A DNA stretch of 64,000 nt from Piscinibacter sp. (GTDB lineage Bacteria; Pseudomonadota; Gammaproteobacteria; Burkholderiales; Burkholderiaceae_C): assembly GCA_044223035.1 (NCBI GenBank), contig JBGAMJ010000013.1, forward strand, positions 1,253-65,252, read 5' to 3'. The first letter of the stretch is position 1, and each line of letters starts with the position of its first letter. Positions 2,737-24,281 of this stretch are shown piece by piece. Both the position numbers and the translations under genes were made by a program. Below the pieces are notes generated by a model, which searched no databases, had not been told where the DNA came from, and saw only the letters and a list, made by a program, of their open reading frames with translations.

Positions 2737-2896
2737 GAGGGTGAGAGGCAATCCGCCATGGCCGCTCATCGCCACCGAACGCCGCCACTCGTCGTTTCAA
2801 TTGCTCGCCGTAGCCCGAGCTACGGCTGTGCTTTGCGCCTAGATTGGCGCCGCCCGGCGGGTCTGCTCGGCCACGCCGGATTGCCTCTCACCCTCT
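2736..2896 (+). repeat. MITE-like inverted-repeat element, copy 1 (161 bp)
   Basis: 14-bp terminal inverted repeats: AGAGGGTGAGAGGC (2736-2749) and GCCTCTCACCCTCT (2883-2896). Internal 8-bp-stem hairpin GCCGTAGC-ccga-GCTACGGC. About 90% identical to the copy at 7465-7625. Confidence 0.85.
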
Positions 2897-3828
2897 GAGC
2901 TCGCCGCCGCCGTTCCCGGCGGGGCAGCCGGCGCCGCCCGCCCCACGAATCCCATCACGTCGTCCAGTACCGGCGCCAGCCAGCGCAGCGGCCGGCCGAA
3001 CGCGCCGGCCAGCGTGGTGTGGTCGACGCGGTCGTACAGCACCTGCTCGACCGGCACGCCCGCGGCGCGCAGCCGCGCCGCCAGTCCCTCGCTGTTGCGC
3101 ACCGGGTCGACCAGCGTGTCGTGCCGCGCCGCGCCGAGGAAGGCCGGCGGCGCGCCGCTCCCGGCGTGCTCCACCGGCTGCGACCCGGCCGGATAGTCCG
3201 GGTGGAAGAACACCGGCTTGACCTCCGGATTGCCGATCGGCAGGAAGTCGTACGGCCCGGCCAGCCCGATCCAGCCCGCCAGCTCGCGCGGCGCGTGTCC
3301 GGTGGCGGCCAGCCAGCGCGGGTCCAGCGCCAGCATCGCGGCGTTGTAGGCGCCGGCGCTGTGGCCCATCACGAACACCCGCCGCGCATCGCCACCGAGG
3401 GCCGCCGCCTCGCGCAGCGCGAAGGCGAGCGCCCTCGCGCCATCCTCCAGGAAGGCCGGGTAGCGCACCTCCGGGTACAGCCGGTAGTCGGCGACCAGCA
3501 CCAGCGCGCCGCGCGACGCCAGCGCCTCGCCGACGAAGCGGTAGTCGGCGCGCTCGCCGTGGTTCCAGGAGCCGCCATAGAAGAACAGCACGACGGGGCG
3601 GCCGGACGGCGGACGCGTCGTCGTCGGCGTGTAGATGTCCAGCCGCTGCCGCGGCAGCGGGCCGTAGGCGACGCCGTCGGCCAGCGTGAAGGTGTCGCGC
3701 GCGGCGAACGCGTTCAGCGTCGCCACCGGCGCGCAGGCGATCGTGGCACCGAGCAGCACCACCGACGCGGCCAGCGCGCCGGCAAGGCGGATCGACGGGC
3801 GGCGCATCCAGCGGGGCAGGGGCGGCAT
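2839..3828 (-). CDS. alpha/beta hydrolase (esterase/lipase type), secreted or lipoprotein
   Basis: GxSxG nucleophile elbow (MGHSAGAY) and an HGG-like FFYGGSW motif. N-terminal signal MRRPSIRLAGALAASVVLLGATIAC. Alternative start at 3807. The last ~19 codons and the stop lie inside the MITE-like repeat. Confidence 0.8.
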   Translation of the reverse strand: MPPLPRWMRRPSIRLAGALAASVVLLGATIACAPVATLNAFAARDTFTLADGVAYGPLPRQRLDIYTPTTTRPPSGRPVVLFFYGGSWNHGERADYRFVGEALASRGALVLVADYRLYPEVRYPAFLEDGARALAFALREAAALGGDARRVFVMGHSAGAYNAAMLALDPRWLAATGHAPRELAGWIGLAGPYDFLPIGNPEVKPVFFHPDYPAGSQPVEHAGSGAPPAFLGAARHDTLVDPVRNSEGLAARLRAAGVPVEQVLYDRVDHTTLAGAFGRPLRWLAPVLDDVMGFVGRAAPAAPPGTAAASSEGERQSGVAEQTRRAAPI

Positions 3829-3981
3829 CGTGGTCTCGCGTTTCGGGCGGCGCGGGGTGCGCCCACGGGCGGGTCTACGCGCGCGCTTGCGGATCGGATG
3901 CAGGGCACGTGCGCCCCGAGCGCGGGGCGCGTGCCGTTCGCGCGGCGGGCGGGCTTTGTGCGCCGCCCTTTCCGCCGCCTC

Positions 3982-5379
3982 TCAGCCCAGCCGCGCCCGA
4001 TGCCGCTCCACCTGCGCACGCACCTGCGCCGGCGCGGTGCCGCCGAGCACGTTGCGCGCGTTCAGCGAGCCGCGCAGCGTCAGCACCGCATGCACGTCGT
4101 CGCCGATCGACGGGTGGAAGGTCTGCAGCGTGGCCAGTGGCAGCTCGGCCAGGTCGGCGCCGAGGGCGATCGCCGCCTTCACCGCATGCGCCACCGCCTC
4201 GTGCGCATCGCGGAAGGGCAGGCCCTTCTTGACCAGGTAGTCGGCCAGGTCGGTCGCGGTGGCGTAGCCCTTCAGCGCGGCGCGTTCCATCGCCTCGGGC
4301 TTGACGATGATGCCGTCGACCATCTCGGCCATGATGCGCAGCGTGTCGCGCACCGTGTCGACGGTGTCGAACAGCGGTTCCTTGTCTTCCTGGTTGTCCT
4401 TGTTGTAGGTCAGCGGCTGGCCCTTCATCAGCGTCAGCAGCGCCATCAGGTGGCCGACCACCCGGCCGCTCTTGCCGCGCGCCAGCTCGGCGACGTCCGG
4501 GTTGCGCTTCTGCGGCATGATCGAACTGCCGGTGCAGTAGCGGTCGGCCAGGTCGATGAAGCCGAAGTTCTGGCTCATCCACAGCACGATCTCCTCCGCC
4601 AGGCGCGACACGTGCACCATCGTGAGGCTCGCGAAGGCACTGAATTCGATCGCGAAATCGCGGTCGCTGACGGCGTCCAGGCTGTTCTGGCACACGCCGT
4701 CGAAGCCCAGCGTGCGCGCCACGCGCTCGCGGTCCAGCGGGTAGCTGGTGCCGGCCAGCGCCGCGGCGCCCAGCGGCAGCCGGTTCAGGCGGCGCCGCAG
4801 GTCGGCGAGCCGTTCGGCATCGCGCGAGAACATCTCCACGTACGCCAGAAGATGGTGCGCAAAGCTCACCGGCTGCGCCACCTGCAGGTGCGTGAAGCCC
4901 GGCAGGATGGTGTCGACGTGCTTCGCCGCCAGCTCGACCAGCGCGCGCTGCATCTGCGCCAGCAGCGGCGCCAGCGCGTCGACCTCGTCGCGCAGCCACA
5001 GCCGCACGTCGGTGGCGACCTGGTCGTTGCGCGAGCGGCCGGTGTGCAGCCGCTTGCCGGCGTCGCCCACCAGCGTGGTCAGCCGCGCCTCGATGTTCAG
5101 GTGCACGTCTTCCAGGTCGAGCTTCCACTCGAAACGGCCGGACTCGATCTCCTCGGTGATCTGCGCCATGCCGCGCTCGATGGCCGCGCGGTCGTCGGCG
5201 CTGATGATCCCCTGCGCGGCCAGCATCTCGGCGTGCGCCAGCGAGCCGGCGATGTCGGCCTTCCACAGGCGCTGGTCGAACGCCACGCTGGCGGTGTAGC
5301 GCTTGACCAGCTCGCTCATCGGCTCGGAGAACAGCGCGGACCAGGCTTCGGATTTCTTGTCGAGTTGGTTGGCGGACAT
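3982..5379 (-). CDS. argH: argininosuccinate lyase
   Basis: 465 aa with the fumarate-lyase signature [12 protein letters not shown] and typical ArgH N-terminal blocks ([23 protein letters not shown]). Confidence 0.95.
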
Positions 5380-5421
5380 GGGCGGTGCGGCAGCGCTCGG
5401 TGCCGGCCGGAGTTGGCGACA

Positions 5422-6615
5422 ATGCCAGGGGCGCGGATTTTATCGGCGCCCGACTCCGACTCCACCTCCGTACCCGCCGTGCCGCGCCCCTCCGCCGACG
5501 AGACTGTCACCGACACCGCGCGCGCCGGGCGGCGTGGCGGCACGGCCGGCGGTGATTCGGTGCCCAGCGCGTTCGGCGCGACGCAGTTCGACCTCACCCC
5601 CACGCCGCCGGCCGCCGCCGCGGCGCCGTTCGACGTCTGCCACGTCGGCGTGGTGCTGCGCACCGCGGGCTTCGTGCTGGGCACGCTGGCGATCGTGCAG
5701 AGCTTCGTCGCGGCCGCAGCGATCGACTGGCTGCCGCGCCTGGCCGTGACCTCGGTGGCGGCGCTCGCCGGCGTGCTGCTGTGGCTGGCCGTCTCCTGCG
5801 CGCTGCGCCGCGTGCTTGCGCAGTGCGCCGACGCGCTGCAGACGCTCGTGGCGGCGCTGCTCGGTGCCGCCTGCGGCGCGGTGGCGGGCGCCGTCGGCGT
5901 GCTGCTGGTGGCCGCGGCGGCGACGCCGGCGGTGCCGGAGCGCACCGACTTCGCGCCCGTCGGGCCGTCGGCGCTGGCCGGCCTGGCCTTCGCGCTGCTG
6001 GTCGCCGCCTGGCTGCGCCTGCGCGCGCGGGCGCAGGGCCCGGCGGACGCCACCGCGCGGCTGGCCGAGCTGCAATCGCGCATCCGGCCGCATTTCCTGT
6101 TCAACACGCTGAACACCGCACTCAGCCTGGTGCGGCTCGACCCGGCGCGGGCGGAGGCGGTGCTGGAAGACCTGGCCGAGCTGTTCCGCGTGGCGCTCAC
6201 CGACAGCGGCGAATCGGTCAGCCTGGGCGAGGAGGTGGAGCTGGCGCAGCGCTACCTGGCGATCGAGCAGATCCGCTTCGGCGACCGGCTGCAGGTGCAC
6301 TGGGAGCTCGACCCCGATGCCGCGCATGCCCGCGTGCCGCCGCTGCTGCTGCAACCGCTGGTCGAGAACGCGGTGCGGCACGGCGTCGAGCCGGCGCCCG
6401 AGGGCGGCGTGATCCGCGTGCGCACCCGGGTGAAGCTGGGCCGCGCGGTGGTGTCGATCGCCAACACCGTGGCCGACGGGCCGTCGCGGCCGGGCCACGG
6501 CATGGCGCTGCAGAACGTGCACGAGCGGCTGCGGCTGATGCACGACATGGCGTCGCAGTTCGAGACGCGCCGCGAGGGCTCGGTGTTCCGGGTGCAGCTC
6601 GCGGTGCCGCTGTGA
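5422..6615 (+). CDS. algZ: LytS/AlgZ(FimS)-type sensor histidine kinase (His_kinase + HATPase_c)
   Basis: C-terminal half carries [20 protein letters not shown] (the H-box of the LytS/YehU class), [16 protein letters not shown] and GHGMALQNV. The N-terminus is multi-pass hydrophobic. The start is uncertain; ATG 5422 is the first in-frame ATG after argH. Confidence 0.8.
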
Positions 6616-6628
6616 GCGCGTGGCGGCG

Positions 6629-7465
6629 ATGAGCGACGACGCCGACGATCGCCTCGTGGTGCTGCTGGTCGACGACGAGGCACTGGCGCGCGCGCGCCTG
6701 CGCGGCCTGGTCGAGGCCAACCCGGACCCGCCCTGCCGCGTCGCCGGCGAGGCGGCGCATGCGGCGCAGGCGCTGGCCTGGCTGGCCGCGCAGCCCTGCG
6801 ACGTGGTGCTGCTCGACATCCACATGCCGGGCCGCGACGGCCTGCAGCTCGCCGCCGAGCTGCGGCGCCTGCCGCGGCCGCCGGCGGTGGTGTTCGTCAC
6901 GGCGCACGCGGAACACGCGTTGACCGCGTTCGACCTGGAGGCGGTCGACTACCTGACGAAACCGGTGCGGCGCGAACGGCTGCAGGCGGCGCTGCAACGC
7001 GTGGCGCAGCGGCTCGCGCCGCGCCCGGGCGCGCGGACGGCGCATCCGCCGGCGGCGCCGGCGCCGGCGCCCGATGCCACCTCCGCCGGCGAGCCGGTGC
7101 TGGTCGTCAGCGACCGCGGGCGCGTGCTGCGCGTGCCGGTGCGCGAGGTGCTCTACCTGAAGGCCGAGCTGAAGTACGTGACGCTGCGCACCGCGCTGCA
7201 CACCCACGTGCTCGACGACGCGCTGAGCGAGCTGGAGCAACGCCTGGGCGATCGTTTCCTGCGCGTGCACCGCAACGCGCTGGTGGCGCGCCATGCCGTG
7301 CGCGCGCTGGAGCGCCGCGTGCTGGCCGGCGAGGGCGATGAGGACGGCGGCGGCGAGACCTGGGCGGTGCGCATCGGCGGCATCGTCGGGCCGGACGAAT
7401 GGCTGGCGGTGTCGCGCCGCCAGGTCAGCGCGGTGCGCGAGGCGCTGGCGGCGTCGGGGCTCTGA
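6629..7465 (+). CDS. algR: LytTR-family response regulator (AlgR type)
   Basis: Receiver domain (VLLVDDE..., DVVLLDIHMPGRDG, DYLTKP) plus a LytTR domain (LYLKAELKYVTLRT..., FLRVHRNALV). The argH-algZ-algR-hem gene order matches the Pseudomonas arrangement. The stop abuts MITE copy 2. Confidence 0.88.
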   Translation: MSDDADDRLVVLLVDDEALARARLRGLVEANPDPPCRVAGEAAHAAQALAWLAAQPCDVVLLDIHMPGRDGLQLAAELRRLPRPPAVVFVTAHAEHALTAFDLEAVDYLTKPVRRERLQAALQRVAQRLAPRPGARTAHPPAAPAPAPDATSAGEPVLVVSDRGRVLRVPVREVLYLKAELKYVTLRTALHTHVLDDALSELEQRLGDRFLRVHRNALVARHAVRALERRVLAGEGDEDGGGETWAVRIGGIVGPDEWLAVSRRQVSAVREALAASGL

Positions 7466-7625
7466 GAGGGTGAGAGGCCATCCGCCATGGCCGCTCATCC
7501 CCACCGAACGCCCCCACTCGTCGTTGCAAATGCTCGCCGTAGCCCGAGCTACGGCTGTGCTTTGCGCCTCGATTGGGGCCGCCCGGCGGGTCTGCTCGGC
7601 CACGCCGGACTGCCTCTCACCCTCT
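7465..7625 (+). repeat. MITE-like inverted-repeat element, copy 2 (161 bp)
   Basis: Same terminal inverted repeats and the same internal hairpin as copy 1, in the same orientation. Lies in the convergent gap between algR and ppc. Confidence 0.85.
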
Positions 7626-7681
7626 GTGGCGTTGCTCGGCGCCGCGCCCGCCACGAGCGTTCGGCGCCGCCCCGACCCGGA

Positions 7682-10531
7682 TCAGCCGGTGTTGCGCAAG
7701 CCGGCGGCCACGCCGTTGATTGAAATGTGGATGCCGCGCTGCACGCGCTCGATGCCGGGTTCCTTGTTGTCCTTGCGGCCGCGGTAGCGCCGCATCAGCT
7801 CGACCTGCAGGTGGTTCAGCGGGTCGAGGTAGGGGAAGCGGTGTTCGATCGAGCGTGCCAGCGTCGGGTTGGACGCCAGGCGCGAGGCCTCGCCGGTGAT
7901 CAGCGACAGCGCGTCGTCGGTGCGCTGCCATTCGGCGCGGACCAGGCCGAAGATCTTCTTGCCGAGCTTCTTGTCCTCGACCAGCTCGACGTAGCGCGCG
8001 GCGATCGCCAGGTCGCTCTTGGCGATCACCATGTCGAGGTTGGACAGCAGCGTGCGGAAGAACGGCCACTGCCGGTGCATGCGCTGCAGCAGCGCCAGGC
8101 GCTCGTCGCGCTGCGCGCCTTCCTCGCCGAGGAACTGCTCGATCGCGCTGCCGAAACCGCACCAGCCGGGCAGCGCCACGCGGCACTGGCCCCAGCTGAA
8201 GCTCCAGGGGATCGCGCGCAGGTCCTCGATCGCCCGCGTGGCCTTGCGCGAGGCCGGCCGCGAGCCGATGTTCAGCTCGGCGATCTCGCGGATCGGCGTG
8301 GCGCTGAAGAAGTATTCGGTGAAGCCAGGGGTCTCGTAGACCAGCTTGCGGTAGGCGGCGAAGCTCGCATCGCTGATCGCCGCGGCGGCTTCGAGGAAGC
8401 TCTTCGGCGCGCTCTTGGTCGGGTGCAGCAGCGTGGCCTCGAGCGTGGCGGCGACCAGCGTCTCGAGGTTGCGGCGGCCGATCTCCGGGTGGGCGTACTT
8501 CGAGGCGATCACCTCGCCCTGCTCGGTCAGGCGGATCTGGCCCTGCACGGTGCCGGGCGGCTGCGCGAGGATCGCCTGGTAGCTCGGGCCGCCGCCGCGG
8601 CCCACCGTGCCGCCGCGGCCGTGGAACAGCCGCAGCGTGATGCCGTGGTCGCGCCCCAGTTCGCCGAACAGCTCGACCAGCGCGATCTCGGCGCGGTACA
8701 GCTCCCAGTTGCTGGTGAAGGTGCCGCCGTCCTTGTTGCTGTCGCTGTAGCCGAGCATGATGTCCTGCTCGGCGCCGGAGCGGGTGATCAGCTCGGTGAT
8801 GCCGGGCAGCGCGTAGAAGGCGCGCATGATCGGCGCGGCATTGCGCAGGTCGCCGATGGTCTCGAACAGCGGCGAGACGATCAGGTCCGACTCGGCGGCG
8901 TCGTCCAGCGTGCCGCGCATCAGGCCCACTTCCTTCAGCAGCACGAGCACCTCGAGCAGGTCGCTCACGTCCTCGGTGTGCGAGATGATGTAGTGGCGCA
9001 TCGCCGCGCGGCCGTAGCGCGCGAGCATCACCACCGCCGCCTCGAAGATCGCGATCTCGCCCTGCGTGTGCTCGCTGTACTTGGCGGCGCGCACGCGCAG
9101 CGGCCGCGCGTCGTTGAGCATGCGCACGAGCAGCGCGCGGCGGCCTTCCTCGGGCAGCGCGCTGTAGTCGGCCTCGATCCTCGCCACCTTCAGCAGTTCG
9201 GCGACCACTGCCTCGTGCTTGTCGGAGCTCTGGCGCAGGTCGACCGTGGCGAGGTGGAAGCCGAACACCTGCACCGCGCGGATCAGCGGCCGCAGCCGCG
9301 GCGCGCTCAGCGCCTGCGCGTGGTGGGCAGCGAGCGAGGCCTCGATCACGCGCACGTCCGCCAGCAGTTCGTCGGAGCTGCGGTACGGGTTCTGCGGTGC
9401 CACCGCGTGGCGCAGCGCCTCGGTGCCGGTGAACTCGTGCAGCGTGGCGGCCAGGCGCGCGTACATGCCGATCAGCGCGCGGCGGTAGGGCTCGTCCTCG
9501 CGGTGGGTGCCGTGGTCGGGCGAGGCGTCGGCCAGCTTGCGCATCTCGGCCGTCACCGGCGCCAGCGTGGCCGAGATCGACAGCTCGGCGCCGAGCTGGT
9601 GGACCTCGGTCAGGTAGAAGCGCAGCACCGTCTCGCTCTGCCGGGCCAGCGCCATCTGCAGCGTGTCGGCGGTGACGAAGGGATTGCCGTCGCGGTCGCC
9701 GCCGATCCAGTTGCCCATGCGGAAGAACGGCGCGATCGGATGGCCCGGCAGTGCCGCCTCCAGCTCGCGGTACATGCGCGGGATCTGCCGCAGGAAGGTC
9801 GCGTGGTAGTAGCTGAGCGCGTTCTCGATCTCGTCGGAGACAGTCAGCTTGGCGGTGCGCAGCATGCGCGTCTGCCAGAGCTGCGTGACGCGGGCGCGGA
9901 TCAGCGATTCGTTCTCGAGCCGGTCGCGCTCGGTCTGCAGGCCGTCGCGCGCTTCCACCAGCTCGGCGATCGCGCGCTCGGCGTCGAGGATGCTCTTGCG
10001 CTGCACCTCGGTCGGGTGGGCGGTCAGCACGGGCGAGATGTAGGCGCGGTCCAGCGTGCGCACGATCTCCTCGGCGCGGATGTCGGCGGCGGCCAGGCGC
10101 TCGAAGGTCATCGCCAGCGAGCCCTCCTGCAGGTGGCCCTGGCGCTCGTGGTGGTCGCGCCGGCGCACGTGGTGTCGGTCTTCGGCGATGTTGGCCAGGT
10201 GCGAGAAATAGCTGAACGCGCGGATCACGCTCACCGTCTGGTCGCCCGACAGGTTCTTCAGCAGGCGGTCGAGCGCGCGGCCGGCCTGGGCGTCGCTCTT
10301 CAGGCGGAAGGCCACCGAGAGCTGGCGCACCTTCTCGACCAGGTCGAACGCCGCCTTGCCCTCCTGTTCGAGGATCACCTCGCCGAGGATGCGCCCGAGC
10401 AGGCGGATGTCCTCGACCAGGGGGCGGTTCTTCTCGGCGGCGTCGTTGGCGGCGGTGTTGACTCGGGGCATCGTCGTCTCGCTGGATGTCGCTGTCGCGA
10501 CGTTTGTCGGGCGGCGCACGGAGGGCGGCAT
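7682..10531 (-). CDS. ppc: phosphoenolpyruvate carboxylase
   Basis: Conserved PEPC blocks: [32 protein letters not shown], and a C-terminal ...AAGLRNTG. An alternative start at 10471 ([10 protein letters not shown]) is plausible. Confidence 0.95.
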
Positions 10532-14951: not shown

Positions 14952-15028
14952 GCGGCTGTAGCTCAGTTGGATAGAGTACTTGGCTACGAACCAAGGGGTC
15001 GTGGGTTCGAATCCTGCCAGCCGCGCCA
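14952..15028 (+). tRNA. tRNA-Arg (anticodon ACG)
   Basis: Hand-folded cloverleaf: acceptor GCGGCTG/CAGCCGC, D-arm GCTC-AGTTGGATA-GAGT, anticodon arm CTTGG-CTACGAA-CCAAG, T-arm GTGGG-TTCGAAT-CCTGC, discriminator G and an encoded CCA. Confidence 0.95.
14983..15028 (+). repeat. attL core: 3' 46 nt of tRNA-Arg
   Basis: GCTACGAACCAAGGGGTCGTGGGTTCGAATCCTGCCAGCCGCGCCA is repeated exactly at 24282-24327. Confidence 0.9.
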
Positions 15029-15662: not shown

Positions 15663-16589
15663 TCAGCGGCCGACCCAGCGCGCCGGCCAGCGGCCGTCGT
15701 CGACCATCTGCCGCAGCACGTCGCCGACCAACTGCATGACCGCGGTGCCGGCGGCGGTGCCAGGACGCAACACGCTGCTGGCACACACGACCCGGCGCGA
15801 CATCGCCGGCGAGTCGATCGTCGAGGCTCGCAACTGGCCCGCGGCCACTTCGTCGGCGACCGCGCCCAGCGGCAGGATGGTGGCGCCGAGCCCGGCCTCC
15901 ACGGCGCGCTTGACGCTGGGCAGCGACTCGATCTCGGCCACGACATCCAGCACGATGCCCTGCGGTTCGCAGGCCTCGTCGACGATGCGGCGCAGGCCGT
16001 GCTCCCGCCCCGGAAGCACCAGCGGCCAGCGCGACAGCTGCGCGAGTGCCAGCTTGCGCGGAGCGGTCCGGCCTCGCGGGCTGGAGATGAACGCGAGGCG
16101 ATCGTCGAGCAGGGCCTGCCTGGCCAGCACCGGATCGGCCTGGTCGCCGAACAGCAGCGCCAGATCCAGCCGGCCGGAGACCAGCCACTCGCGCAGGAAG
16201 CCGCTGTAGGCCTCGACGACCTTGATGCGGACCTCGGGCAGTCGCTCCCGGCACGCCTGCAGGATCGGCACGGTTGCGATCAGCGTGATGGTCGTCGGCA
16301 GCCCGATCGCCACCTCGCCGCTGGGGATGAGGGCCGATTGGCGAACGGCGGTGCGTGCCCGCTCTGCGTCGGCCAACAGGACCTTGGCGTGTTCGAGGAA
16401 GGCCTTGCCCGCCTCGGTCAGCGTCACGCCCCGGCTGGAGCGGTGGAAAAGGCGCGCGCCCAGGCTGTGCTCGAGCGCCGCGATCTGCTGCCCCAGCGCG
16501 GGCTGGGCGATGTGTAGCCGCGTCGAGGCCTTCAGCAGGCTCCCGGCTTCGCTGACACCGACGAAATACCGGACCTGGCGCAGTTCCAT
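15663..16589 (-). CDS. LysR-family transcriptional regulator
   Basis: 308 aa with an N-terminal winged HTH (MELRQVRYFVGVSEAGSLLKASTRLHIAQPALGQQIAALE) and a LysR substrate-binding domain. Divergent from the dehydratase fragment. Confidence 0.9.
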   Translation of the reverse strand: MELRQVRYFVGVSEAGSLLKASTRLHIAQPALGQQIAALEHSLGARLFHRSSRGVTLTEAGKAFLEHAKVLLADAERARTAVRQSALIPSGEVAIGLPTTITLIATVPILQACRERLPEVRIKVVEAYSGFLREWLVSGRLDLALLFGDQADPVLARQALLDDRLAFISSPRGRTAPRKLALAQLSRWPLVLPGREHGLRRIVDEACEPQGIVLDVVAEIESLPSVKRAVEAGLGATILPLGAVADEVAAGQLRASTIDSPAMSRRVVCASSVLRPGTAAGTAVMQLVGDVLRQMVDDGRWPARWVGR

Positions 16590-16731: not shown

Positions 16732-17004
16732 GTGACCATCGCCACCCCGCCGATCGACATCGACCATCTGCGCCAGTGGATCGACCGTGGCGAATCCGTC
16801 GAGGACGTGGTCACGGTGGCTCCGCTGCGCGCGCTGGCCGCAACGCTGGACCGCGACGACGCGCTGCCGACCGCCGGCGACACCGTGCCGGCGTGCTGGC
16901 ACTGGCTGTACTTCCTGCCCGCGAACCGCCAGTCGGAGATCGGCCCGGACGGCCATCCGCGACGCGGCGAATTCCTGCCGCCCGTGCTGCTGCCGCGCCG
17001 CATG
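16732..17004 (+). pseudogene. 5' fragment of a MaoC/hotdog-type (acyl-CoA) dehydratase gene, truncated by IS21
   Basis: WHWLYFLP...IGPDGHPRRGEFLPPVLLPRRM matches the N-terminal hotdog-dehydratase motif and then runs into the IS21 left end at 17003. Confidence 0.6.
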
Positions 17005-17079
17005 TCAGTGGCATCCCAATAATCCCCAGTTGTGGCATCTGAATTTTCCCCACCCATCGACATCGCGAAGGAGCGAGAG

Positions 17080-18429
17080 ATGGAAGTGGAAGGAAGAGAG
17101 AAGGCAGGAGAGGCCGGTACCGTGCCCGTTCGCAGACGGAGCATGGAGGTGGCCGTGGTTGGCCAGGAGCAGTGGGAGTTGATCCGCAATCGCAGCGCCG
17201 AGGGGCACGGCGTGTCGGTGATCGCGCGGGAGCTGGGTCTGGACCGCAAGACGGTCAGGAACTGCCTCAAGCGCGAGGCATGGAAGCCGTACAGCCGCGA
17301 GGCGACCCGAGCGACGGTGCTGGATGAGCACATGGAGTGGCTGCGCCGGCGGGCCCCGCAGGTTGCGTTCTCGGCTCGGATCCTGCACCAGGAACTGCAG
17401 GCGCAGCGCGGCTTCACTGGCTGCTACGAGGTGGTCAAGGTGGCGGTGCGACCGTTGCGGGCGACGGCGTCGGTTGCGGCGCTCACGCAGATGCGCTTCG
17501 AGACGGCGCCGGGCGAGCAGGCGCAAGTCGACTGGGGCCAGGTCAAGGTTTGGCTGGGCGGTGAGCCGACGCGGGTGCACGTGTTCGTGATGACGCTGGG
17601 GTACAGCCGGCGCGGCTACGCCGAGGGGTATCTGAACGAGCGGATGGACAGCCTGCTGTCGGCACACGAGCGCGCGTTCGAGCACTTCGGCGGGGTCTGC
17701 CAGTCGTTGCTGTACGACCGGATGCGCACGGTCACCATCGGCACGACCGAAGACGACGCCGGCGTGCGGCGGGCGAAGCTGAACGCGACGTTCCAGGCGT
17801 TCGCCGGGCACTGGGGGTTCACGATCCGGCTGTGCCGGCCGTACCGGGCGAAGACCAAGGGCAAGGTCGAGTCCGGCGTGAAGTACATCAAGCGCAACTT
17901 CGTGCCGGGGCGGCAGTTCCGGGATCTGGAGGACTTCAATGGTCAGCTCGTCGCCTGGCAGCAAGAGGTTGCCGACGTGCGCGTGCATGGCACGACACAT
18001 CAGCGGCCGATCGATCGGTTCGCCGACGAGGCGAGCGCGCTGATGCCGGCGACCGGGCATCGCAGCTTCCTGCAGGCCCTGGTGCGCGAGCGCGTGGTTG
18101 CCGAAGACTGGCTGGTCGCGATCGATGCCAACCGCTACTCGGTGCCGTTCCGGCTGATCGGCAAGACCGTCCAGGTTGCTCGCGAGGGCGACCGATGGTT
18201 GATCCGTCATCGCGGCAAGCTCGTGGCCGAGCATCCGGTGCTGATCGGACGCGCGCAGCTGAGCGTCGAGCCCGAGCACGGCCCCGGAGCGGCCACGCGC
18301 AACCAGCGGCAGCGCTACGCCGAGTTGGGAGATCGGCCACCCGCACCACAGCCAACCGATCGCGACGTACAGGTCCGCGACCTGGCGGTCTACGACCAAC
18401 TGGTCCATGACGTGCGGGAGGCCGCATGA
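17080..18429 (+). CDS. istA: IS21-family transposase IstA
   Basis: HTH (WELIRNRSAEGHGVSVIARELGLDRKTVRNCL) plus a DDE integrase core (QVDWG..., ...YDRMRT..., ...YRAKTKGKVE). GAAGGAG lies 6 nt upstream of ATG 17080. Confidence 0.9.
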   Translation: MEVEGREKAGEAGTVPVRRRSMEVAVVGQEQWELIRNRSAEGHGVSVIARELGLDRKTVRNCLKREAWKPYSREATRATVLDEHMEWLRRRAPQVAFSARILHQELQAQRGFTGCYEVVKVAVRPLRATASVAALTQMRFETAPGEQAQVDWGQVKVWLGGEPTRVHVFVMTLGYSRRGYAEGYLNERMDSLLSAHERAFEHFGGVCQSLLYDRMRTVTIGTTEDDAGVRRAKLNATFQAFAGHWGFTIRLCRPYRAKTKGKVESGVKYIKRNFVPGRQFRDLEDFNGQLVAWQQEVADVRVHGTTHQRPIDRFADEASALMPATGHRSFLQALVRERVVAEDWLVAIDANRYSVPFRLIGKTVQVAREGDRWLIRHRGKLVAEHPVLIGRAQLSVEPEHGPGAATRNQRQRYAELGDRPPAPQPTDRDVQVRDLAVYDQLVHDVREAA

Positions 18430-18821
18430 CGAGCGCGTCCACTCGGTCCTCCAAGCTCGCCACGGCCGGCGTGACGGCCTCGGCGATGACCACGCCGGCG
18501 CAGCTCGAGCGGCTCGGCGAGCATCTGCGCAAGCTGCGTCTGCTCAAGAGCGGCGAACGCCTGGAGGCGATGCTGCAGCACGCCGCCGCCCAGGAGCTGC
18601 CCTACGCGGAGTTCCTCGAGCAGGTGCTCGGCGAGGAGGTCGCCGCCAAGACCAGCAAGAACATCGCGATGCGCACGGCGATGGCCCGGCTGCCGTTCGT
18701 CAAGCCGCTGGAGACCTTCGAGTTCGACTACCAGCCGTCGATCGACCGCAAGCAGGTCCAGGCGCTGGCGAGCTGCCACTTCATCGAGCACGGCGACAAC
18801 GTCATCGTGCTCGGGCCGCCC
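18426..18821 (+). pseudogene. istB: istB 5' part (IS21 helper ATPase), interrupted after ...NVIVLGPP
   Basis: The IstB N-terminal region (LRLLKSGERLEAMLQHAAAQELPYAEFLEQVL...FEFDYQPSIDRKQV) ends in the first half of the P-loop, then reads DHAT-stop from the inserted DNA. Confidence 0.85.
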
Positions 18822-18852
18822 GATCACGCGACATGATGCTCACCTCGCCACG

Positions 18853-20934
18853 TCATTGAATATCAAGGGAAATCTGTCGAGGATCCACTGTTAGCGGACC
18901 TCGTCCAGGGGAAGTTCGTGTTGCGTTGGTGCCCAGACGGTGAACGTCAGTGGCCCTGATGACCCAGGGCGCCCCCTTGCACGCCTGCGTGGCCGCGAGT
19001 TGCCCGGCGCCGATCATGCGCAGCACCGTCATCGTGCTGATACCAAGGGCCTCGGCGGCCTGCTCGAGTGTCAACTCACCGCGTGCCTCGCGTTCCCCGG
19101 TCTTGTAGACGTCGATGTGGTTGTCGCATCGGAATGAGCGCACGCGCATCTCGGTCCAGGTGTGGTCCTTGGCAGTGCGATGTCCGAGACGATTCAGCAG
19201 CGCAGCAATGCCGCCGTCATTGAGTTGGCGGGCGAGCTGCGTGATCAGTGTCTGGACCTCGACATTGGTCGTCCAGCGGTGCTGTCCGACGCGGTTCTTC
19301 ACCACGTTCAGCTCGGTATGGTCGCCACCGTGCCAATGGATGACGAGTTCGACGCGCGCGTCGGCCACGCGCGCCACGACCTCCCTGATGACGCAGCGCA
19401 GGATGCGCTTGCGCACTTCGTTGCCGGCCGAGGGGTGGGACCAGGCACGCGGCAAGTCGGCGCCGAGCGCCAACAGATCCTCGCGCTGCCGCGGCGTCAG
19501 GCCCGAATCGGCCTGCACCAGCAGCGCCTCGATCTGCGCCTCGCGCTGCACGACCTCGGCAAGCCGCTCGTTCCAGCGTCGCTCGAGCTCGGCGGCGACC
19601 AGGCGATTGCCGGGGTCCACGGCATCGAATTGCCGCTGGGCACGAGCGGCCTCGAAGCGCGCCTGCTCCAGTGCGAGTTCGAGCTGCCGGCGCTTGCCCT
19701 GTCCATCGTCGGCGCGTTGCTCGATGGCGTGCAGCGCCGCCTCTACGCCGATTGGCCCGAGCGCGCTCAGGACTTCGCGGCCGACCGCCTCGTCCACGCG
19801 CAGCGAGCCGAAGGAGATGCAGCCCTGGGGCAAACCGTGGTTGATCGCGGCACCCTTGCAGTGGTAGCGGCCCACAGTGCCTTGGCTCCCACCATAGGCC
19901 ACATGCAGCTTGCGTCCGCAGTGCGCACAACGCAGCAACCCAGGCAGCAGGGCCTCGCCGCGACGCAGCGCGCCTCGGGCCATGCCGCCGCCGCGCATGT
20001 TGGTGTTGTCGGCGATCACGCGCTGGTTGTGCTCGTAGGTGGTCCAGTCAATGTAGCCGTCGTGATGTTCCTGGATCAAGACCTGCCAGTGCTCGCGCGC
20101 ACGGCGGTGGCCCCGTACGACGCGCTTGCGCCCGGCTTCGATGCGCACGCGGGTCTCGGTGCGGCCGAAGGCGTAGGCGCCGGCGTACACAGGGTTGGAC
20201 AGGATGTGCAAGACGGTGTTGTAGCTCGGCAGCCTCCACACCACGCTGCGTCGGCCGTCGTCATAGATCGCGGCTGGCAGTTCGATGCGCTCCTGCCGGA
20301 ACCACAGCAGCACCTGGCGCACGCTGCCCGCCTGCGCGAACCGACTGAACACCGCCCCGATGGCCTCCCGGATGCGCAGGTCGGCGTCGAGTTCGATCCG
20401 GTCACCCTCGCTGCGGACGAAGCCGATGGCCACCGTGGTGTGCAGATCTCCCCGCGCAGCCTTGAGCTTGAGGGCCTCGACGGATCGCTGGCGCAGCAGC
20501 GACAGTTCCATCTCCGACATCGTTCCCTTCATGCCCAGCAGCAACCTGTCGTTGACGCTGCGCGGGTCGTAGACGCCGTCCTCATCGACGATGACGCTGC
20601 CCACCAGAGCGCAGAATTCCAGCAGCGTATGCCAGTCCCGCCCATTGCGTGCCAGCCGCGAGGCTTCGATGGAGACGACGGCACCGACCTGGCCGCCGCA
20701 GATCGCGGCCAGCAGCCGTTCGAAGCCGGGCCGGGCCACGCCGCCGGCGGATACGCCGAGATCGTCGTCGATCACCACGACTTCGGTCCATCCCAGCGCC
20801 CGAGCGCGATCGGCCAAGGCGTACTGGCGTCGGCGACTCTCGTGGTTGTTGCGCAACTGGTCGGCGGTGGACTGCCGCACGTACACGTAGGCACCACGGG
20901 CCAAGTGCTCAGGGCTGATCTTGCTCATCGTCAT
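18853..20934 (-). CDS. large serine recombinase (resolvase + recombinase + zinc-ribbon domains, coiled coil, C-terminal HTH)
   Basis: 693 aa. Catalytic-serine motif YVYVRQSTADQL, resolvase core (VVSIEASRLARNGRDW), a Cys pair set (CAHCGRKLH...YHCKG), a long helical region, and a C-terminal MerR/excisionase-like HTH (LTLEQAAEALGISTMTVLRMIGAGQL). Confidence 0.9.
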   Translation of the reverse strand: MTMSKISPEHLARGAYVYVRQSTADQLRNNHESRRRQYALADRARALGWTEVVVIDDDLGVSAGGVARPGFERLLAAICGGQVGAVVSIEASRLARNGRDWHTLLEFCALVGSVIVDEDGVYDPRSVNDRLLLGMKGTMSEMELSLLRQRSVEALKLKAARGDLHTTVAIGFVRSEGDRIELDADLRIREAIGAVFSRFAQAGSVRQVLLWFRQERIELPAAIYDDGRRSVVWRLPSYNTVLHILSNPVYAGAYAFGRTETRVRIEAGRKRVVRGHRRAREHWQVLIQEHHDGYIDWTTYEHNQRVIADNTNMRGGGMARGALRRGEALLPGLLRCAHCGRKLHVAYGGSQGTVGRYHCKGAAINHGLPQGCISFGSLRVDEAVGREVLSALGPIGVEAALHAIEQRADDGQGKRRQLELALEQARFEAARAQRQFDAVDPGNRLVAAELERRWNERLAEVVQREAQIEALLVQADSGLTPRQREDLLALGADLPRAWSHPSAGNEVRKRILRCVIREVVARVADARVELVIHWHGGDHTELNVVKNRVGQHRWTTNVEVQTLITQLARQLNDGGIAALLNRLGHRTAKDHTWTEMRVRSFRCDNHIDVYKTGEREARGELTLEQAAEALGISTMTVLRMIGAGQLAATQACKGAPWVIRATDVHRLGTNATRTSPGRGPLTVDPRQISLDIQ

Positions 20935-21109
20935 TCTCCGGGCATTGAGTGACGTCGGCCTGACGGACCACCTGCCAAAGCAGCTGGCTGAGCAGCTCGA
21001 CGAGTTCGTCGCGGTGCAGTTGCAGACTCGTCAAGGGCGCAGGGGCCGACGCGGTGCCGAACAGGTCGGGCTGCACCGGCAGATACGCCCGCGGCAGGAT
21101 TGGCTTCAT
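20909..21109 (-). CDS. small ORF (66 aa) overlapping the LSR start; function unknown
   Basis: MKPILPRAYLPVQPDLFG...LLSQLLWQVV... GGAGGTG lies just upstream of ATG 21109. The stop overlaps the LSR start by 26 nt. No recognisable domain. Confidence 0.35.
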   Translation of the reverse strand: MKPILPRAYLPVQPDLFGTASAPAPLTSLQLHRDELVELLSQLLWQVVRQADVTQCPENDDEQDQP

Positions 21110-21419
21110 CGACACCTCCAGGTGGCAGGGCAACGGTCGATGAAGATAGGACGGCGTCGAGTTCTCGCCGCAGCGCCAGCAACGAACTCAGCAGCTGTCG
21201 CGGCGGCCAATGCGTGGGGACGTCGCCGGCGGTGGGCAGCGTCATCCACTGCGGCAGATGTGCCCTGGTGCCGTCGGGCTGTCGAATGATCAGATAGTCG
21301 TCCGGGCCGTGCCTGGATCGGCCCAGCACCTCGACCTCTTCACCCACCCGCGGGTGGAATGGATAGTGGATGCGAACCAGCGCTACACGCTGTTCGCGGG
21401 CAGTATGTGACTGCTTCGC
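20931..21419 (-). CDS. small protein resembling the Y4bD/Y4pK (DUF5372-like) family; no canonical start inside the integrated element
   Basis: The frame is open from the element's right edge: (A)KQSHTAREQRVALVRIHYPFHPRVGEEVEVLGRSRHGPDDYLIIRQPDGTRAHLPQWMT... The first canonical start is GTG 21347, after the conserved HYPFHP motif. The C-terminal ~60 codons are low-complexity and overlap the 66-aa ORF. Confidence 0.4.
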   Translation of the reverse strand, partial: AKQSHTAREQRVALVRIHYPFHPRVGEEVEVLGRSRHGPDDYLIIRQPDGTRAHLPQWMTLPTAGDVPTHWPPRQLLSSLLALRRELDAVLSSSTVALPPGGVDEANPAAGVSAGAARPVRHRVGPCALDESATAPRRTRRAAQPAALAGGPSGRRHSMPGE

Positions 21420-21886
21420 CGGGCGTGGGCAAGACGCACCTGGCCGTCTCGCTCGGGCTCAAGGCGATCGCCTGCGGCTACCGCGTGCTCTTCACGACTG
21501 CGGCGAACCTGATCACCGCGCTGACTCGGGCGCACACCGAGGGCCGCCTCGACGAGAAGCTGAAGGTCTACGCCACGCCGCGGCTGCTGATCATCGACGA
21601 GATCGGGTACCTGCCCATCGACCGGCTGGGCGCGAACCTGTTCTTCCAGCTGATCAGCCGGCGCTACGAGCGCGGGCCGATGATCCTGACGAGCAACCAG
21701 AGCTTCTCGGCATGGGGCGACGTCTTCGGCGACAGGATCATCGCCACGGCCATCCTCGATCGGCTGCTGCACCACGCCGTCACGCTCAACATCCGCGGCA
21801 ACTCGTACCGCCTCAAGGACAAGCTCAAGGCCGGTCTGATCCGGGCCCATGACAACGACGGTTCCCAACCGGGTGGGGAAATTTAG
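21419..21886 (+). pseudogene. istB: istB 3' part (Walker A onward)
   Basis: PGVGKTHLAVSLGLKAIACGYRVLFTT..., Walker B LLIIDEIGYLP, ...TSNQSFSAWGDVF...AILDRLLHH: the IstB AAA+ core. Confidence 0.85.
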
Positions 21887-21923
21887 GCTGCCACGAGTGG
21901 GGAAAATTGAAATGCCGTTGACA

Positions 21924-21992
21924 GTCCTCCTTCGTCGTGTCCGCGCGCTGCTTGAGCCGGGCCCGGATCGACGCGGCGCGGTTGACCGTCAT
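21924..21992 (-). pseudogene. 5' stub (23 codons) of an AbiEii-type nucleotidyltransferase toxin gene, cut by the IS21 right end
   Basis: MTVNRAASIRARLKQRADTTKED matches the characteristic AbiEii N-terminus. Its ATG overlaps the AbiEi stop (ATGA). The reading frame then runs into the IS21 inverted repeat. Confidence 0.6.
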
Positions 21993-22603
21993 GCGGTGAT
22001 GGCCTCGACGTACGGCCGCATCACGCGCGTCATGCGGCCGGCCTCGGCATGGCGCCACAGCTCGTCGATGGTGAACTTTCGCTTCGACCAGCCGTCGCGC
22101 AGCGCTTCGATGGCGACATCGACGCCGATCTTGTTGCGGAAGCGGAAGGTATCGACCACCGTCTTCGCGGCGCTGAACACGGGAACGGCAACACCGTCCA
22201 CCATGATGTGCTGGACCCCGTCGACGAGGGACTGGTCGGACATGCGGATGACGCGCAGCTGCGGCTGGACAAGCCTGGGCACGGCGGCGCGGTGCGGGAG
22301 TGCGAGCCACACTTCGAAGGGCGCCTGCGTGCCGATGTCGTGCACGCGAAGCGCCGAGAGCAGGCAGACCACGCCCTTGGGCACCCGCAGCGCCACCTCG
22401 GCCAGCGACCGGTGCTCGCTGACGGATGCACCCGGAAGCCCGTACATCCCGCGTGCGAGCCGCTCCAGCTTTCCGGCCTGCACCAGGCGTGTCAGTGCCA
22501 CCGTCGGCAGCCCGTACGCGGCCAGGTCACGGGCACGCAGCAGTCTGCGCAGCTTCGCCAGGCGCAGCACTTGGGCTTCGTGCGTTGGGCTCGCGGGAGC
22601 CAT
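21989..22603 (-). CDS. type IV toxin-antitoxin AbiEi-family antitoxin/transcriptional regulator
   Basis: 204 aa: N-terminal wHTH (RARDLAAYGLPTVALTRLVQAGKLERLARGMY) and the AbiEi C-terminal domain (...VPVFSAAKTVVDTFRFRNKIGVDVAIEALRD). Confidence 0.8.
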   Translation of the reverse strand: MAPASPTHEAQVLRLAKLRRLLRARDLAAYGLPTVALTRLVQAGKLERLARGMYGLPGASVSEHRSLAEVALRVPKGVVCLLSALRVHDIGTQAPFEVWLALPHRAAVPRLVQPQLRVIRMSDQSLVDGVQHIMVDGVAVPVFSAAKTVVDTFRFRNKIGVDVAIEALRDGWSKRKFTIDELWRHAEAGRMTRVMRPYVEAITA

Positions 22604-22687
22604 GATAGGTGTTGCAAAAAGTAGGAGATTATCGTCCAAATCCGAGAAAACACAACGACGCCACGGCGCACGAACCTGACTCTCGCT

Positions 22688-24127
22688 TCACGTCGACCCA
22701 CTCACCAGCCGCAGCCGCCGCGCCAGCGCCGCCTCGATGGCAGCGCCCAGCTTTGCCCAGGCTTGCTTCGTCTCGTCGGCATAGTCGTGCTTCACGTAGT
22801 GCCGCCGAACGCGGCTGCCGGCGAGCACGTGGTTCTGGCAGCGGTCGATCACGTCGGGCATCACGCCCAGCGCCTGCATCATCGTGGCGCCGGTGCGGCG
22901 CAGGTCGTGCGGCGTCCATTCGCCGTTCTCGCCGCCCGAGAGCACCAGGCTGTTGTCGTTGCGCCGGTTGCGCAGGGCTTTGCGCTGCTTGAAGCGGTGC
23001 TGGCGGTCGCCGACCTGCTTGCTCACCGACTTCACGTCCACGTGGGACTCGCCGTCGCGGCCGGGGAAGCACCAGCACGTCTTCCCGGTGCGTGCATGCA
23101 GCGCGCGGAACTGGCGCAGCGCGAACGGCGACAGGTAAACGAAGTGATCGCGCTTCTTGCCGCGCGAGCCTTTCACATTCTCCTTCGGCACGAACCAGGT
23201 ACCGGCCTCGAAGTCCACATGCCGCCACTCGGTCATCAACAGCTCGCCGATGCGGCACAGCGTGGACAGGCACAGCCACAGCGCGGCTTGCGTCTCGGGC
23301 TCGACGGGGCGCACCGCGCTGCGCTTGTCGGGTGCGGTTTCGTAGTCGCGTGCCATCTGCTCGAAGCGGTCGCGCAGCTCGCGGATCTCGTCGTCATTCA
23401 GCACGCGCGAACGGATGTTGCTCAGGTCGTAGTCGGGATCGACGATCTTCGCAATCTCGACCAGCTCGGCCGGATTGCCGTCCTGCAGCAGCCTGCGCCA
23501 GGGCTGGCGCTTCTCGGCCCAGCGGAACATCTGCTTGATATTACGGTGGACCTCGACCGCCGTGCGGTTGACGCCGCGGGCCACCAGCGCGCGCAGCGCG
23601 CTGCGTACGTCGTGCTCAGTCACCGAGCGTACGGGTTTGGCACCGAGCGCCGGCAGCACGTCGCGCTCGAACGATCGGTTCAGTGCGGCATTGCCGTCGC
23701 GGCGCAGCACGCCGTCGCGGATCCACTGTTCGTAGAGGTCCTGCACCGAGGCGTCCTCGGAGCGGCGCCGTTCCTCGGCTGCAAGCGTGGCCTTCACCTG
23801 CTCGCGCGCCTCGATGCGATCGGCCTCGCGCTTGGCATTGGGGTCGAGGCCGCGCCGGAGCGTCTCGCGAGCCTCGTCGCGCGCGCGGCGGATGGCGGTG
23901 AGAGACGACATCGGCCAGGTTCCGCAGTAGTGCCATGCCTTCTTGCCCTCCCGTTTGTACTCGTAGCGGAAGTGCACGCGCGGCGCGCTGTCGCCGGCGG
24001 TGAACCGCACTGCGCCGACGAGCCCGTCGCCATCGCGCAGCGTGTCGCCGCGCCAGTCCGGCGGGACGGCTTTCAGCTCCGCCACGGTCCACTTTCGGCC
24101 GCGGCCCGACTTGGGGTAGCGGGTCAT
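22688..24127 (-). CDS. tyrosine-type site-specific integrase (P4-like, DUF4102-type N-terminus)
   Basis: 479 aa with arm-binding N-terminal domain, SAM-like core and a catalytic domain carrying R (LSTLCRIGELL), HDLRRTGATMM and a C-terminal ...RRHYVKHDY. Adjacent to the attR repeat. Confidence 0.9.
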   Translation of the reverse strand: MTRYPKSGRGRKWTVAELKAVPPDWRGDTLRDGDGLVGAVRFTAGDSAPRVHFRYEYKREGKKAWHYCGTWPMSSLTAIRRARDEARETLRRGLDPNAKREADRIEAREQVKATLAAEERRRSEDASVQDLYEQWIRDGVLRRDGNAALNRSFERDVLPALGAKPVRSVTEHDVRSALRALVARGVNRTAVEVHRNIKQMFRWAEKRQPWRRLLQDGNPAELVEIAKIVDPDYDLSNIRSRVLNDDEIRELRDRFEQMARDYETAPDKRSAVRPVEPETQAALWLCLSTLCRIGELLMTEWRHVDFEAGTWFVPKENVKGSRGKKRDHFVYLSPFALRQFRALHARTGKTCWCFPGRDGESHVDVKSVSKQVGDRQHRFKQRKALRNRRNDNSLVLSGGENGEWTPHDLRRTGATMMQALGVMPDVIDRCQNHVLAGSRVRRHYVKHDYADETKQAWAKLGAAIEAALARRLRLVSGST

Positions 24128-24141
24128 CTCGAACTTCTCCA

Positions 24142-24164
24142 GGGGTCCACCCAGGGGTCCACCG
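24142..24164 (+). promoter_or_regulatory. tandem GGGGTCCACC repeats in the integrase leader; candidate arm-type sites or operator
   Basis: Identical 23-mer to 15087-15109. Located between the predicted integrase promoter and the integrase ATG (24127). Confidence 0.45.
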
Positions 24165-24172
24165 GAAGTGGG

Positions 24173-24201
24173 ATTATGCGGGCAGATCCGGGATGGTCTA
24201 A
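24173..24201 (-). promoter_or_regulatory. candidate sigma-70 promoter of the integrase gene
   Basis: Minus strand reads TTAGAC (24201-24196), a 17-bp spacer, then CATAAT (24178-24173), in an AT-richer stretch upstream of the integrase gene. Confidence 0.35.
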
Positions 24202-24281
24202 GACGTAGTGTAGAGACTAAGTCATTGATATACAAAGGAATTTTCAGTCCAAGGAGATCCCGGGAAGTCTCGTCTTAATGC

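Follow-up and report, generated by a model that had tools for sequence, protein, structure and literature searches.

In a 64,000-nucleotide stretch of the genome of a Piscinibacter species (contig JBGAMJ010000013.1, positions 1,253 to 65,252; hereafter the window), the istB gene of an insertion sequence (IS) of the IS21 family is split by a 2.6-kb block of DNA that carries a gene for a large serine recombinase (LSR) and two small open reading frames, here called ORF1 and ORF2. Comparison with related sequences makes it very probable that this block is an autonomous, IS-like element mobilized by its own recombinase, and that its attachment site in the target (attB) is the DNA encoding the P-loop of IstB. 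A second proposition, that translation of ORF1 is switched on specifically when the element forms a circle, stands at about even chances on the same kind of evidence. The description that joins the two, an LSR element that targets istB and also carries a translational switch, is one that we consider likely.

The host element (17003..21923, + strand) measures 2,321 bp once the insertion is subtracted. It has the organization of the IS21 family, in that istA, encoding a DDE transposase, is followed by istB, encoding an AAA+ helper, and the whole is bounded by terminal inverted repeats, which read TGTCAGTGGCAT... at the left and ...ATGCCGTTGACA at the right in the window. The product of istA (17032..18429, +) has Pfam matches to rve (E 1.2e-13) and Mu-transpos_C_2 (E 2e-20). 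The 5' part of istB (18426..18820, +), which forms the left half of attB, ends in ...NVIVLGP(P) and corresponds in tblastn to residues 1-132 of the joined IstB at 100% identity; the 3' part, forming the right half (21421..21886, +; residues 128-286), runs from (P)GVGKTHLAVSLG... to the stop codon. The frame loses its sense after ...NVIVLGPP at 18820/18821 and picks up as GVGKTHLAVSLG from 21421. When positions 18813-18820 (GGGCCGCC) are set directly before 21421... (GGGCGTGGGCAAGACG), the product is GGG CCG CCG GGC GTG GGC AAG ACG, with no base gained or lost; excision of the element with one copy of the core described below rebuilds istB exactly. The joined IstB of 286 amino acids covers positions 2-238 of the 238 in Pfam IstB_IS21 (E 7.5e-87) and scores 281.8 bits (cutoff 200) with NCBIfam IS21_help_AAA. 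The first-pass annotation of this DNA had placed the break after NVIVLGPP and had noted that joining restores an intact P-loop; its coordinates are right, and both profiles find the joined protein to be full length.

The limits of the element can be fixed from the register of 52 related elements in which both junctions are present. If the target is numbered 1-24 over the codons GGN NNN NNN GGN NNN GGN AAR (A/T)CN, then attL, the istB-5' junction, consists of target nucleotides 1-8 followed by CGA(T/G)C..., and attR, the istB-3' junction, of ...TCG followed by target nucleotides 7-24. Nucleotides 7-8 alone are common to both junctions, with no longer duplication, so that insertion occurs between nucleotides 8 and 9 and the core makes up the first two positions of the third Walker-A codon. 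In the window this core (crossover) dinucleotide is CC, found at 18819..18820 on the istB-5' side and again at 21419..21420 on the istB-3' side. The element-specific DNA between them (18821..21418, − strand) is 2,598 bp long, or 2,600 bp as a circle that includes the core; in the 52 relatives it ranges from 2541 to 2598 bp. A two-nucleotide core at both junctions fits the 2-bp staggered cut that would be expected of a serine recombinase. The earlier reading that the junctions share CGCC is correct for the window copy as such, but the true core is narrower, because the CG that precedes CC is element DNA (TCG) on one side and target DNA (a CCG codon) on the other and adjoins it by coincidence. 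The CG on either side was considered as the crossover and rejected, since target positions 5-6 and 9-10 are not conserved as CG, and near-identical copies in the same genome that differ at the core on both sides also rule it out. The accompanying claim that there is no target duplication of the DDE type agrees with the finding of exactly two target bases at both junctions.

The element ends in ...TCG and CGA..., and its joined ends (attP) thus have a palindromic TCG-NN-CGA centre with imperfect inverted arms, in the form ...ATGTCGCGTGATCG-NN-CGAAGCAGTCACAT.... The P arm (18821..18852, −) lies between the LSR stop codon and the end of the element, and doubles as the start module of ORF1. The P' arm, CGAAGCAGTCACATACTGCCCGCGAACAGC on the LSR strand (21389..21418, −), lies within ORF1 codons 6-15 and is defined by a left-end alignment of about 60 loci, by the attP consensus and by the symmetry of the arms. 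The 9-bp imperfect inverted arms singled out in the first-pass annotation, GCAGTATGT (21400-21408) and ACATGATGC (18831-18839), are where it put them and coincide with the best-conserved symmetric block of the family attP consensus, GCA..ATG / CAT..TGC. TCG-NN-CGA with its arms has the layout of an attP at which a serine recombinase makes a 2-bp crossover, as the first-pass annotation had suggested; the attL/attR register in the 52 elements agrees.

The recombinase gene (18853..20928, −) encodes 691 amino acids. An alternative ATG at 20934 would give the 693 residues originally proposed; the start at 20928 is the likely one, and a database protein (P0001) is 100% identical to the 691-residue form. 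The following domains are found by profile search: in Pfam, Resolvase over positions 1-144 of 145 (E 2.1e-25), with the serine nucleophile motif YVRQSTADQ in the translation, Recombinase (PF07508, E 1.2e-13), Zn_ribbon_recom (PF13408, E 5.3e-6; 27.2 bits, cutoff 25.3) and a C-terminal HTH_17 (E 1e-7). The PHROG integrase family phrog_95 covers residues 13-554 (E 2.1e-49). With a resolvase catalytic domain, the Recombinase and zinc-ribbon domains and a 2-bp shared core read from the sequence, the protein is a bona fide LSR, for which catalysis is predicted. Beyond the usual LSR domains it has an extra C-terminal region of about 140 residues (~555-691; window 18853-19400), in which HTH_17, an excisionase/MerR-type helix-turn-helix, occupies residues 621-666; this tail might provide an additional DNA contact or a built-in directionality function. 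ORF2 (20909..21109, −; 66 amino acids) is complete, has a Shine-Dalgarno (SD) sequence of its own, GGAGGTG, overlaps the tail of ORF1 and the start of the LSR gene, and carries the motif Q-x-D-L-F ... LL-x-E. It is kept in the same relative (third) frame in all elements examined and has no match in Pfam, NCBIfam or PHROG; it appears to be the best candidate for an excision (directionality) factor. The element thus holds ORF1, ORF2 and the LSR gene and no cargo, and only about 20 of its 2,600 nucleotides are non-coding, in agreement with the initial impression of a very compact unit. Of the two small upstream frames described at that stage, ORF2 is indeed complete, but the other, which contains a DUF5372 domain, has no start codon at its end of the element, and its split had been overlooked.

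Thousands of relatives of the recombinase are present in databases, many of them on stand-alone contigs of about 2.6 kb, and 327 plasmid records carry one. Bradyrhizobium sp. RDM12 and Cupriavidus pinatubonensis LMG 23994 are among the strains with the element, and the y4bD/y4pK proteins of plasmid pNGR234a may be further relatives. A scan of one genome per species gave 394 stretches that encode relatives, and 80 loci with 60-97% LSR identity were kept; these come from Beta- and Alphaproteobacteria, Acidobacteriota and others, several genomes having many copies. In about 60 of the 80, tblastn with the joined window IstB finds the two halves of an IstB flanking the LSR gene, the IstBs being 27-77% identical to that of the window. 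The C-terminal part (from residue ~128-133) lies on one side and the N-terminal part (up to ~130-135) on the other, antisense, the element being antisense to istB in nearly all loci. In 58 of 63 evaluable loci the left junction keeps register with the antisense of G-x-G-K-T/S; the exceptions are L056, which is in register although missed by the pattern, a masked stretch and three inverted copies. For the right junction the figure is 45 of 51, the remainder comprising two rearranged flanks, one 1-nt irregularity, and inverted copies or a mis-anchored match. Rebuilding of the empty sites gave 47 non-redundant targets, and 46 of these read as a hydrophobic strand followed by G-x-(P/T/S/A)-G-x-G-K-(T/S); in the 47th (L077) the flank is rearranged on the istB N side. 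The ten most divergent reconstructions each match IstB_IS21 once and over its full length (E 1e-63 to 1e-74). The target, as these reconstructions present it, is the P-loop (Walker-A) DNA of IS21 IstB, to the base. The first-pass annotation had proposed exactly this attB from one copy, and the relatives with their flanks carry the proposal to 47 non-redundant loci at one istB register, the conserved core being 2 nt.

The core itself varies. In the orientation of istB it is AC, CC, TC, AG or GC, in each case the first two letters of a codon for Thr, Pro, Ser or Ala. The dinucleotide is identical at the two junctions in 40 of the 52 elements and different in 12, in 11 of these by a single base. 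Canonical serine recombinases do not tolerate unequal core dinucleotides; the pattern is what replication of a heteroduplex joint with one mismatch would leave, and occasional mismatch-tolerant events may have let the core, and rarely the orientation, change. The three copies that are inverted relative to istB are L036, L039 and L020 (1-60). The junction dinucleotides of L036 and L039 are unequal (GG and AG), and the genome that contains these two also holds the same type of IS21 with a normally oriented element (L038, AG/AG) and a copy with hybrid flanks (L040).

There is evidence that the element moves. In one metagenome-assembled genome, two copies (L019 and L021) that are 99.8% identical over exactly 2,594 bp lie in two unrelated IS21s. 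Joined element ends, which the first-pass annotation had recommended looking for, occur on seven public contigs. Three are junction fragments (L081, L083, L095) and three are circular assemblies: L089, with a 101-nt terminal overlap and a unique length of 2,593, L090, with a 141-nt overlap and a unique length of 2,570, and L088, with an overlap of ~119 nt that contains one mismatch. The seventh, L087 (a 95-kb ENA long-read contig, 2450-10040), has two tandem copies within one istB. This tandem has an attP-type joint with an intact ORF1 within the genome, and the recombinase gene of its second copy has been hit in turn by an IS with a Tn5-like DDE transposase, which makes three levels of nesting. 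On the recombinase strand the core of the joint is GG in five contigs and GT in two, all with the TCG-NN-CGA centre. A pattern scan of metagenomes for the joint gave one true match only (L083); another, L082, was a chance match in an unrelated gene. Three stand-alone contigs of about 2.6 kb (L084, L085, L086) were considered as circles and rejected, as they end at the element boundaries or enter an istB flank, the behaviour expected of collapsed repeats. In L084 (2,601 bp) and L085 (2,599 bp; Logan/JGI) the assembly breaks within 0-4 nt of the core; since assemblies break at the boundaries of the element, stand-alone recombinase contigs of about 2.6 kb are a practical metagenome signature of the family. 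The near-constant length, the genomes with many copies, the pair L019/L021, the stand-alone contigs and the seven joined-end contigs agree with the minimal, IS-like, LSR-driven unit proposed for the window at the outset.

The interrupted IS21 can evidently be carried along. Composites of an IS21 and its inserted element, bounded by TGT...ACA, recur identically at two places of one genome with unrelated surroundings in two cases, L079/L080 (5,081 bp) and L036/L039 (5,104 bp); no clear target duplications are seen around either pair. An IS21 that has been interrupted is therefore still movable, presumably with IstB supplied in trans from another copy.

The arrangement of ORF1 is unusual. Its body in the window (20931..21418, −) begins with the second base of codon 6 and runs to the stop codon TGA at 20931-20933, and the translation of 20931-21419 matches Pfam DUF5372 (PF17342) over residues 17-60 with 27.0 bits (cutoff 25); at E<=1e-3, 2,510 clusters belong to the profile family. 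Neither the window copy nor its clade has an ATG, GTG or TTG between the junction and the DUF5372 domain, and the integrated ORF1 of the window is without a start because the first such codon in frame (21347) lies inside the domain. The SD, the ATG and the first 4⅔ codons are instead at the opposite end of the element, just past the LSR stop. On the LSR strand this distal end reads: LSR stop (18853-55), 6 nt, the SD sequence GAGGTGA (18840-18846), 5 nt, ATG (18832-18834), 11 nt, end. The order stop, SD, ATG, 11 nt and core is conserved in nearly all loci, and in all 52 elements joining of the ends places ORF1 in the frame of the distal ATG, insertions and deletions between junction and domain being of whole codons. 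The joined ORF1 is 158-170 residues long in all of these save one, where it has 98, and begins M-x-R-x-R-x-x-Q-R-H-T-A (alignment A1); of the two core bases, one is the last of codon 5 (CGN, Arg) and the other opens codon 6. Database proteins with the predicted N-terminus (P0122, P0134, P0160, P0176, P0188, P0214) come from joined-end contigs only, and the remaining ORF1 gene calls have N-termini derived from the flank or starts inside the domain. A leader of the form M-(F/I/T)-C-R..., starting at an ATG in the flank, is seen in P0137, P0142, P0257, P0270, P0273, P0289, P0295, P0309 and P0355.

At its other end, ORF1 is closely tied to the LSR gene. Its stop codon and the LSR ATG overlap in 48 of the 52 elements (ATGA in 36, TGATG in 12), and in two, including the window, the stop lies 2 nt before the ATG. 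The ORF1 frame is open across the overlap with ORF2 in each of 15 divergent elements; on synonymous reshuffling of ORF2 it stays open with a probability of 0.06-0.81 in each, the product, 3e-12, being an overstatement because the lineages are related. In two homologues of window 20909-21347 (−), P0124 and P0130, the ORF1 frame runs into ORF2 as a natural fusion, which might reflect an error in the sequence, genuine variation or frameshifting between the two overlapping genes. An AlphaFold model of P0122 (mean predicted local distance difference test score, pLDDT, 77.9) has a confident core over residues 18-99, consisting of a small beta-barrel and a helix, while disorder is predicted for the 17 N-terminal residues and for the tail from residue 100 onwards. 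A Foldseek search of this model against the PDB gave no match below E 0.009; the resemblance to KOW/Tudor/SH3-like barrels is weak and no function is drawn from it.

From this arrangement the following cycle can be proposed. The LSR, perhaps with ORF2 as directionality factor, would excise the element as a 2.6-kb circle. Circularization would unite the SD, the ATG and the first 4⅔ codons with the body of ORF1, which would thus be translatable only, or mainly, in the circle. Through the overlap of the ORF1 stop and the LSR start, termination and reinitiation would couple translation of the LSR to that of ORF1 and raise it in the circle, and recombinase made mainly there would bring about re-integration into another istB. 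Integration would again split ORF1 and quieten the element. The core dinucleotide would decide which istB alleles can be used (Pro, Thr, Ser or Ala at the third P-loop codon), and rare events with one mismatched base would allow it to change. A wider interpretation treats ORF1 as a sensor of state, split by its own attachment site and driving the LSR from the circle, and treats the reversible splitting of the IstB P-loop as an on/off switch for the IS21 while the element rides on an IS21 mobilized in trans; this is put forward tentatively, as somewhat short of an even chance.

Several observations count against parts of this scheme. The unequal junction dinucleotides in 12 elements are unlike the behaviour of canonical serine recombinases, and homologous recombination between copies could lie behind some of the hybrids (e.g. 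L040, L026). Circular contigs assembled from short reads could also come from tandem copies such as those in L087. The roles given to ORF1 and ORF2 are guesses, ORF1 having no informative structural relative and ORF2 no family match. A scan of 18600-21700 for sigma-70 consensus promoters and terminators found none, such a scan being uninformative in G+C-rich DNA. The distal ATG and the codon for His-10 (CAT) mirror each other as halves of the attP arm motif, and conservation of the start codon could partly reflect recombinase binding rather than coding. In the alphaproteobacterial clade the folded domain is directly preceded by a GTG or TTG in frame, which gene callers use. Finally, targets that encode GK(S/T)W as TCA/ACA-TGG supply an in-frame ATG from the antisense flank, and the integrated ORF1 is therefore not strictly untranslatable.

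The last three points, together with the predicted disorder of ORF1 residues 1-17 and an NCBI annotation of one alphaproteobacterial protein of this kind as 'DUF5372 family protein', would be accommodated by a simpler account, in which element and target are the same but there is no switch: the distal SD and ATG would be kept as a recombinase-binding arm, and ORF1, begun at an internal or flank-derived start, would be an ordinary accessory or directionality protein. This we hold to be rather unlikely. It has to contend with the window clade, which lacks any ATG, GTG or TTG between junction and domain, with the frame held by whole-codon changes in 52 of 52 elements, with the near-perfect match of GAGGTGA to the anti-SD sequence 5 nt before the ATG, and with an ORF1 frame that is open up to its overlap with the LSR start. 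It might alternatively be supposed that the element is a domesticated intervening sequence of the type excised by XisF (fdxN) or SpoIVCA (skin), regulated excision of which turns on IS21 transposition, so that it would be a control device of the host or the IS21 and not selfish. Excision would indeed rebuild istB exactly, and XisF is the best NCBIfam match of the LSR, but the score is 95.8 bits against an equivalog cutoff of 375 (NF041201); the element is multi-copy, moves between unrelated IS21s and is spread across many phyla and the 327 plasmid records, and the gene that it interrupts belongs to a transposon rather than to the host. Domestication is accordingly given very little weight. Even less can be said for chance insertion, or for a passenger block of one IS21 variant with no true target specificity; the single copy in the window could not by itself have excluded this, but it is refuted because 47 non-redundant targets, in IstBs that are 27-77% identical, are interrupted in the same register with boundaries identical to the base.

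Among known systems, the clostridial transposons Tn4451/Tn4453 (TnpX) and Tn5397 (TndX) are similar in that an LSR serves as the 'transposase', a circle is formed, and the core is of 2 bp with no longer duplication. Transposons of this type have a fixed GA dinucleotide at both ends and in their targets. They are 6-21 kb long with resistance and mobilization cargo and are loose in their choice of target, whereas the window element is 2.6 kb long and cargo-free, and its family has CC, AC, AG, TC and GC cores and one very specific target. The excised circular form that characterizes the group is matched here by the circular assemblies and junction fragments; the GA core and the cargo are absent. 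Joining of the ends alters recombinase expression in those transposons and, as proposed, in the present family; the circle joint of Tn4451 reportedly forms the promoter of tnpX (this is said to be the finding of Lyras and Rood in 2000), whereas the joint of the window family appears to rebuild coding sequence.

The IS607 family also consists of ISs moved by a serine recombinase; they are described (PMC6188088) as small, with a serine transposase TnpA, a circular route, no inverted repeats of the DDE type and no target duplication. TnpA, however, is small, has its DNA-binding domain at the N-terminus and shows hardly any target specificity, whereas the window protein has the Recombinase and zinc-ribbon domains of an LSR, scores 22.7 bits with NF033518 (cutoff 110) and is accompanied by no tnpB. 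In ICEclc (Pcirc) and ICEKp1 (P3'end), it takes circularization to bring a signal from the distal end to the recombinase gene (PMC13023037); these are integrative and conjugative elements of tens of kb with tyrosine integrases and a joined promoter, whereas here it is the ribosome-binding site, start codon and first codons that are joined. Specialization on a conserved gene of another mobile element is likewise seen in helper-embedded satellites, whose integrases form a clade specialized on conserved late genes of prophages (PMC10111431); those are phage satellites with tyrosine integrases that lie in prophages, in contrast to an LSR mini-element within an IS. The integrases of phages and prophages that are LSRs have a modular core dinucleotide (PMC10083194). 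Bxb1, phiC31, SPbeta SprA, XisF and SpoIVCA share the domain set, precise attP x attB recombination within coding sequence and small directionality factors, but their elements are large, single-copy in the genome and directed at host genes, and none is reported to target istB.

The surroundings of the IS21 in the window are island-like, with a tRNA-Arg(ACG) (14952-15028), a LysR regulator (15663-16589) and a P4-type tyrosine integrase (22688-24235). A 96-residue reading frame beside the IS21 (16732-17022) ends 20 bp within its left end, the adjacent gene apparently having been truncated by the IS21, and a gene for an AbiEi-type antitoxin (21989-22639) directly adjoins the right end. No direct repeat was seen around the IS21.

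The searchable literature yielded no description of DUF5372, of an LSR in combination with istB or of istB as an integration site, and neither IstB nor IS21 is mentioned in the text or supplements of the LSR survey of Durrant et al. (PMC10083194). On annotated plasmids the element is listed merely as a 'recombinase family protein' beside istA. The family looks like an undescribed one, a 'parasite of a parasite'. What is new is a cargo-free, IS-like LSR element that is addressed to the P-loop DNA of another transposon's ATPase and whose own attachment site divides one of its genes. For annotation, this concerns a large unnamed family (394 relatives, 327 plasmid records, 2,510 ORF1 clusters), whose members silently inactivate copies of IS21 and cause assembly breaks and mis-called genes. 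Engineers could draw on it for compact LSRs whose attB is short and well defined and varies naturally in its core dinucleotide, and possibly for a built-in expression switch. The joint, if the switch is real, would do for translation what the junction promoters of IS circles and Tn4451 do for transcription. If the proposal is true, the family would clearly exemplify transposons that live on other transposons, its address being the most conserved stretch of DNA in IS21 elements, which would give it a landing site that is harmless to use, present in many copies and carried horizontally through many phyla.

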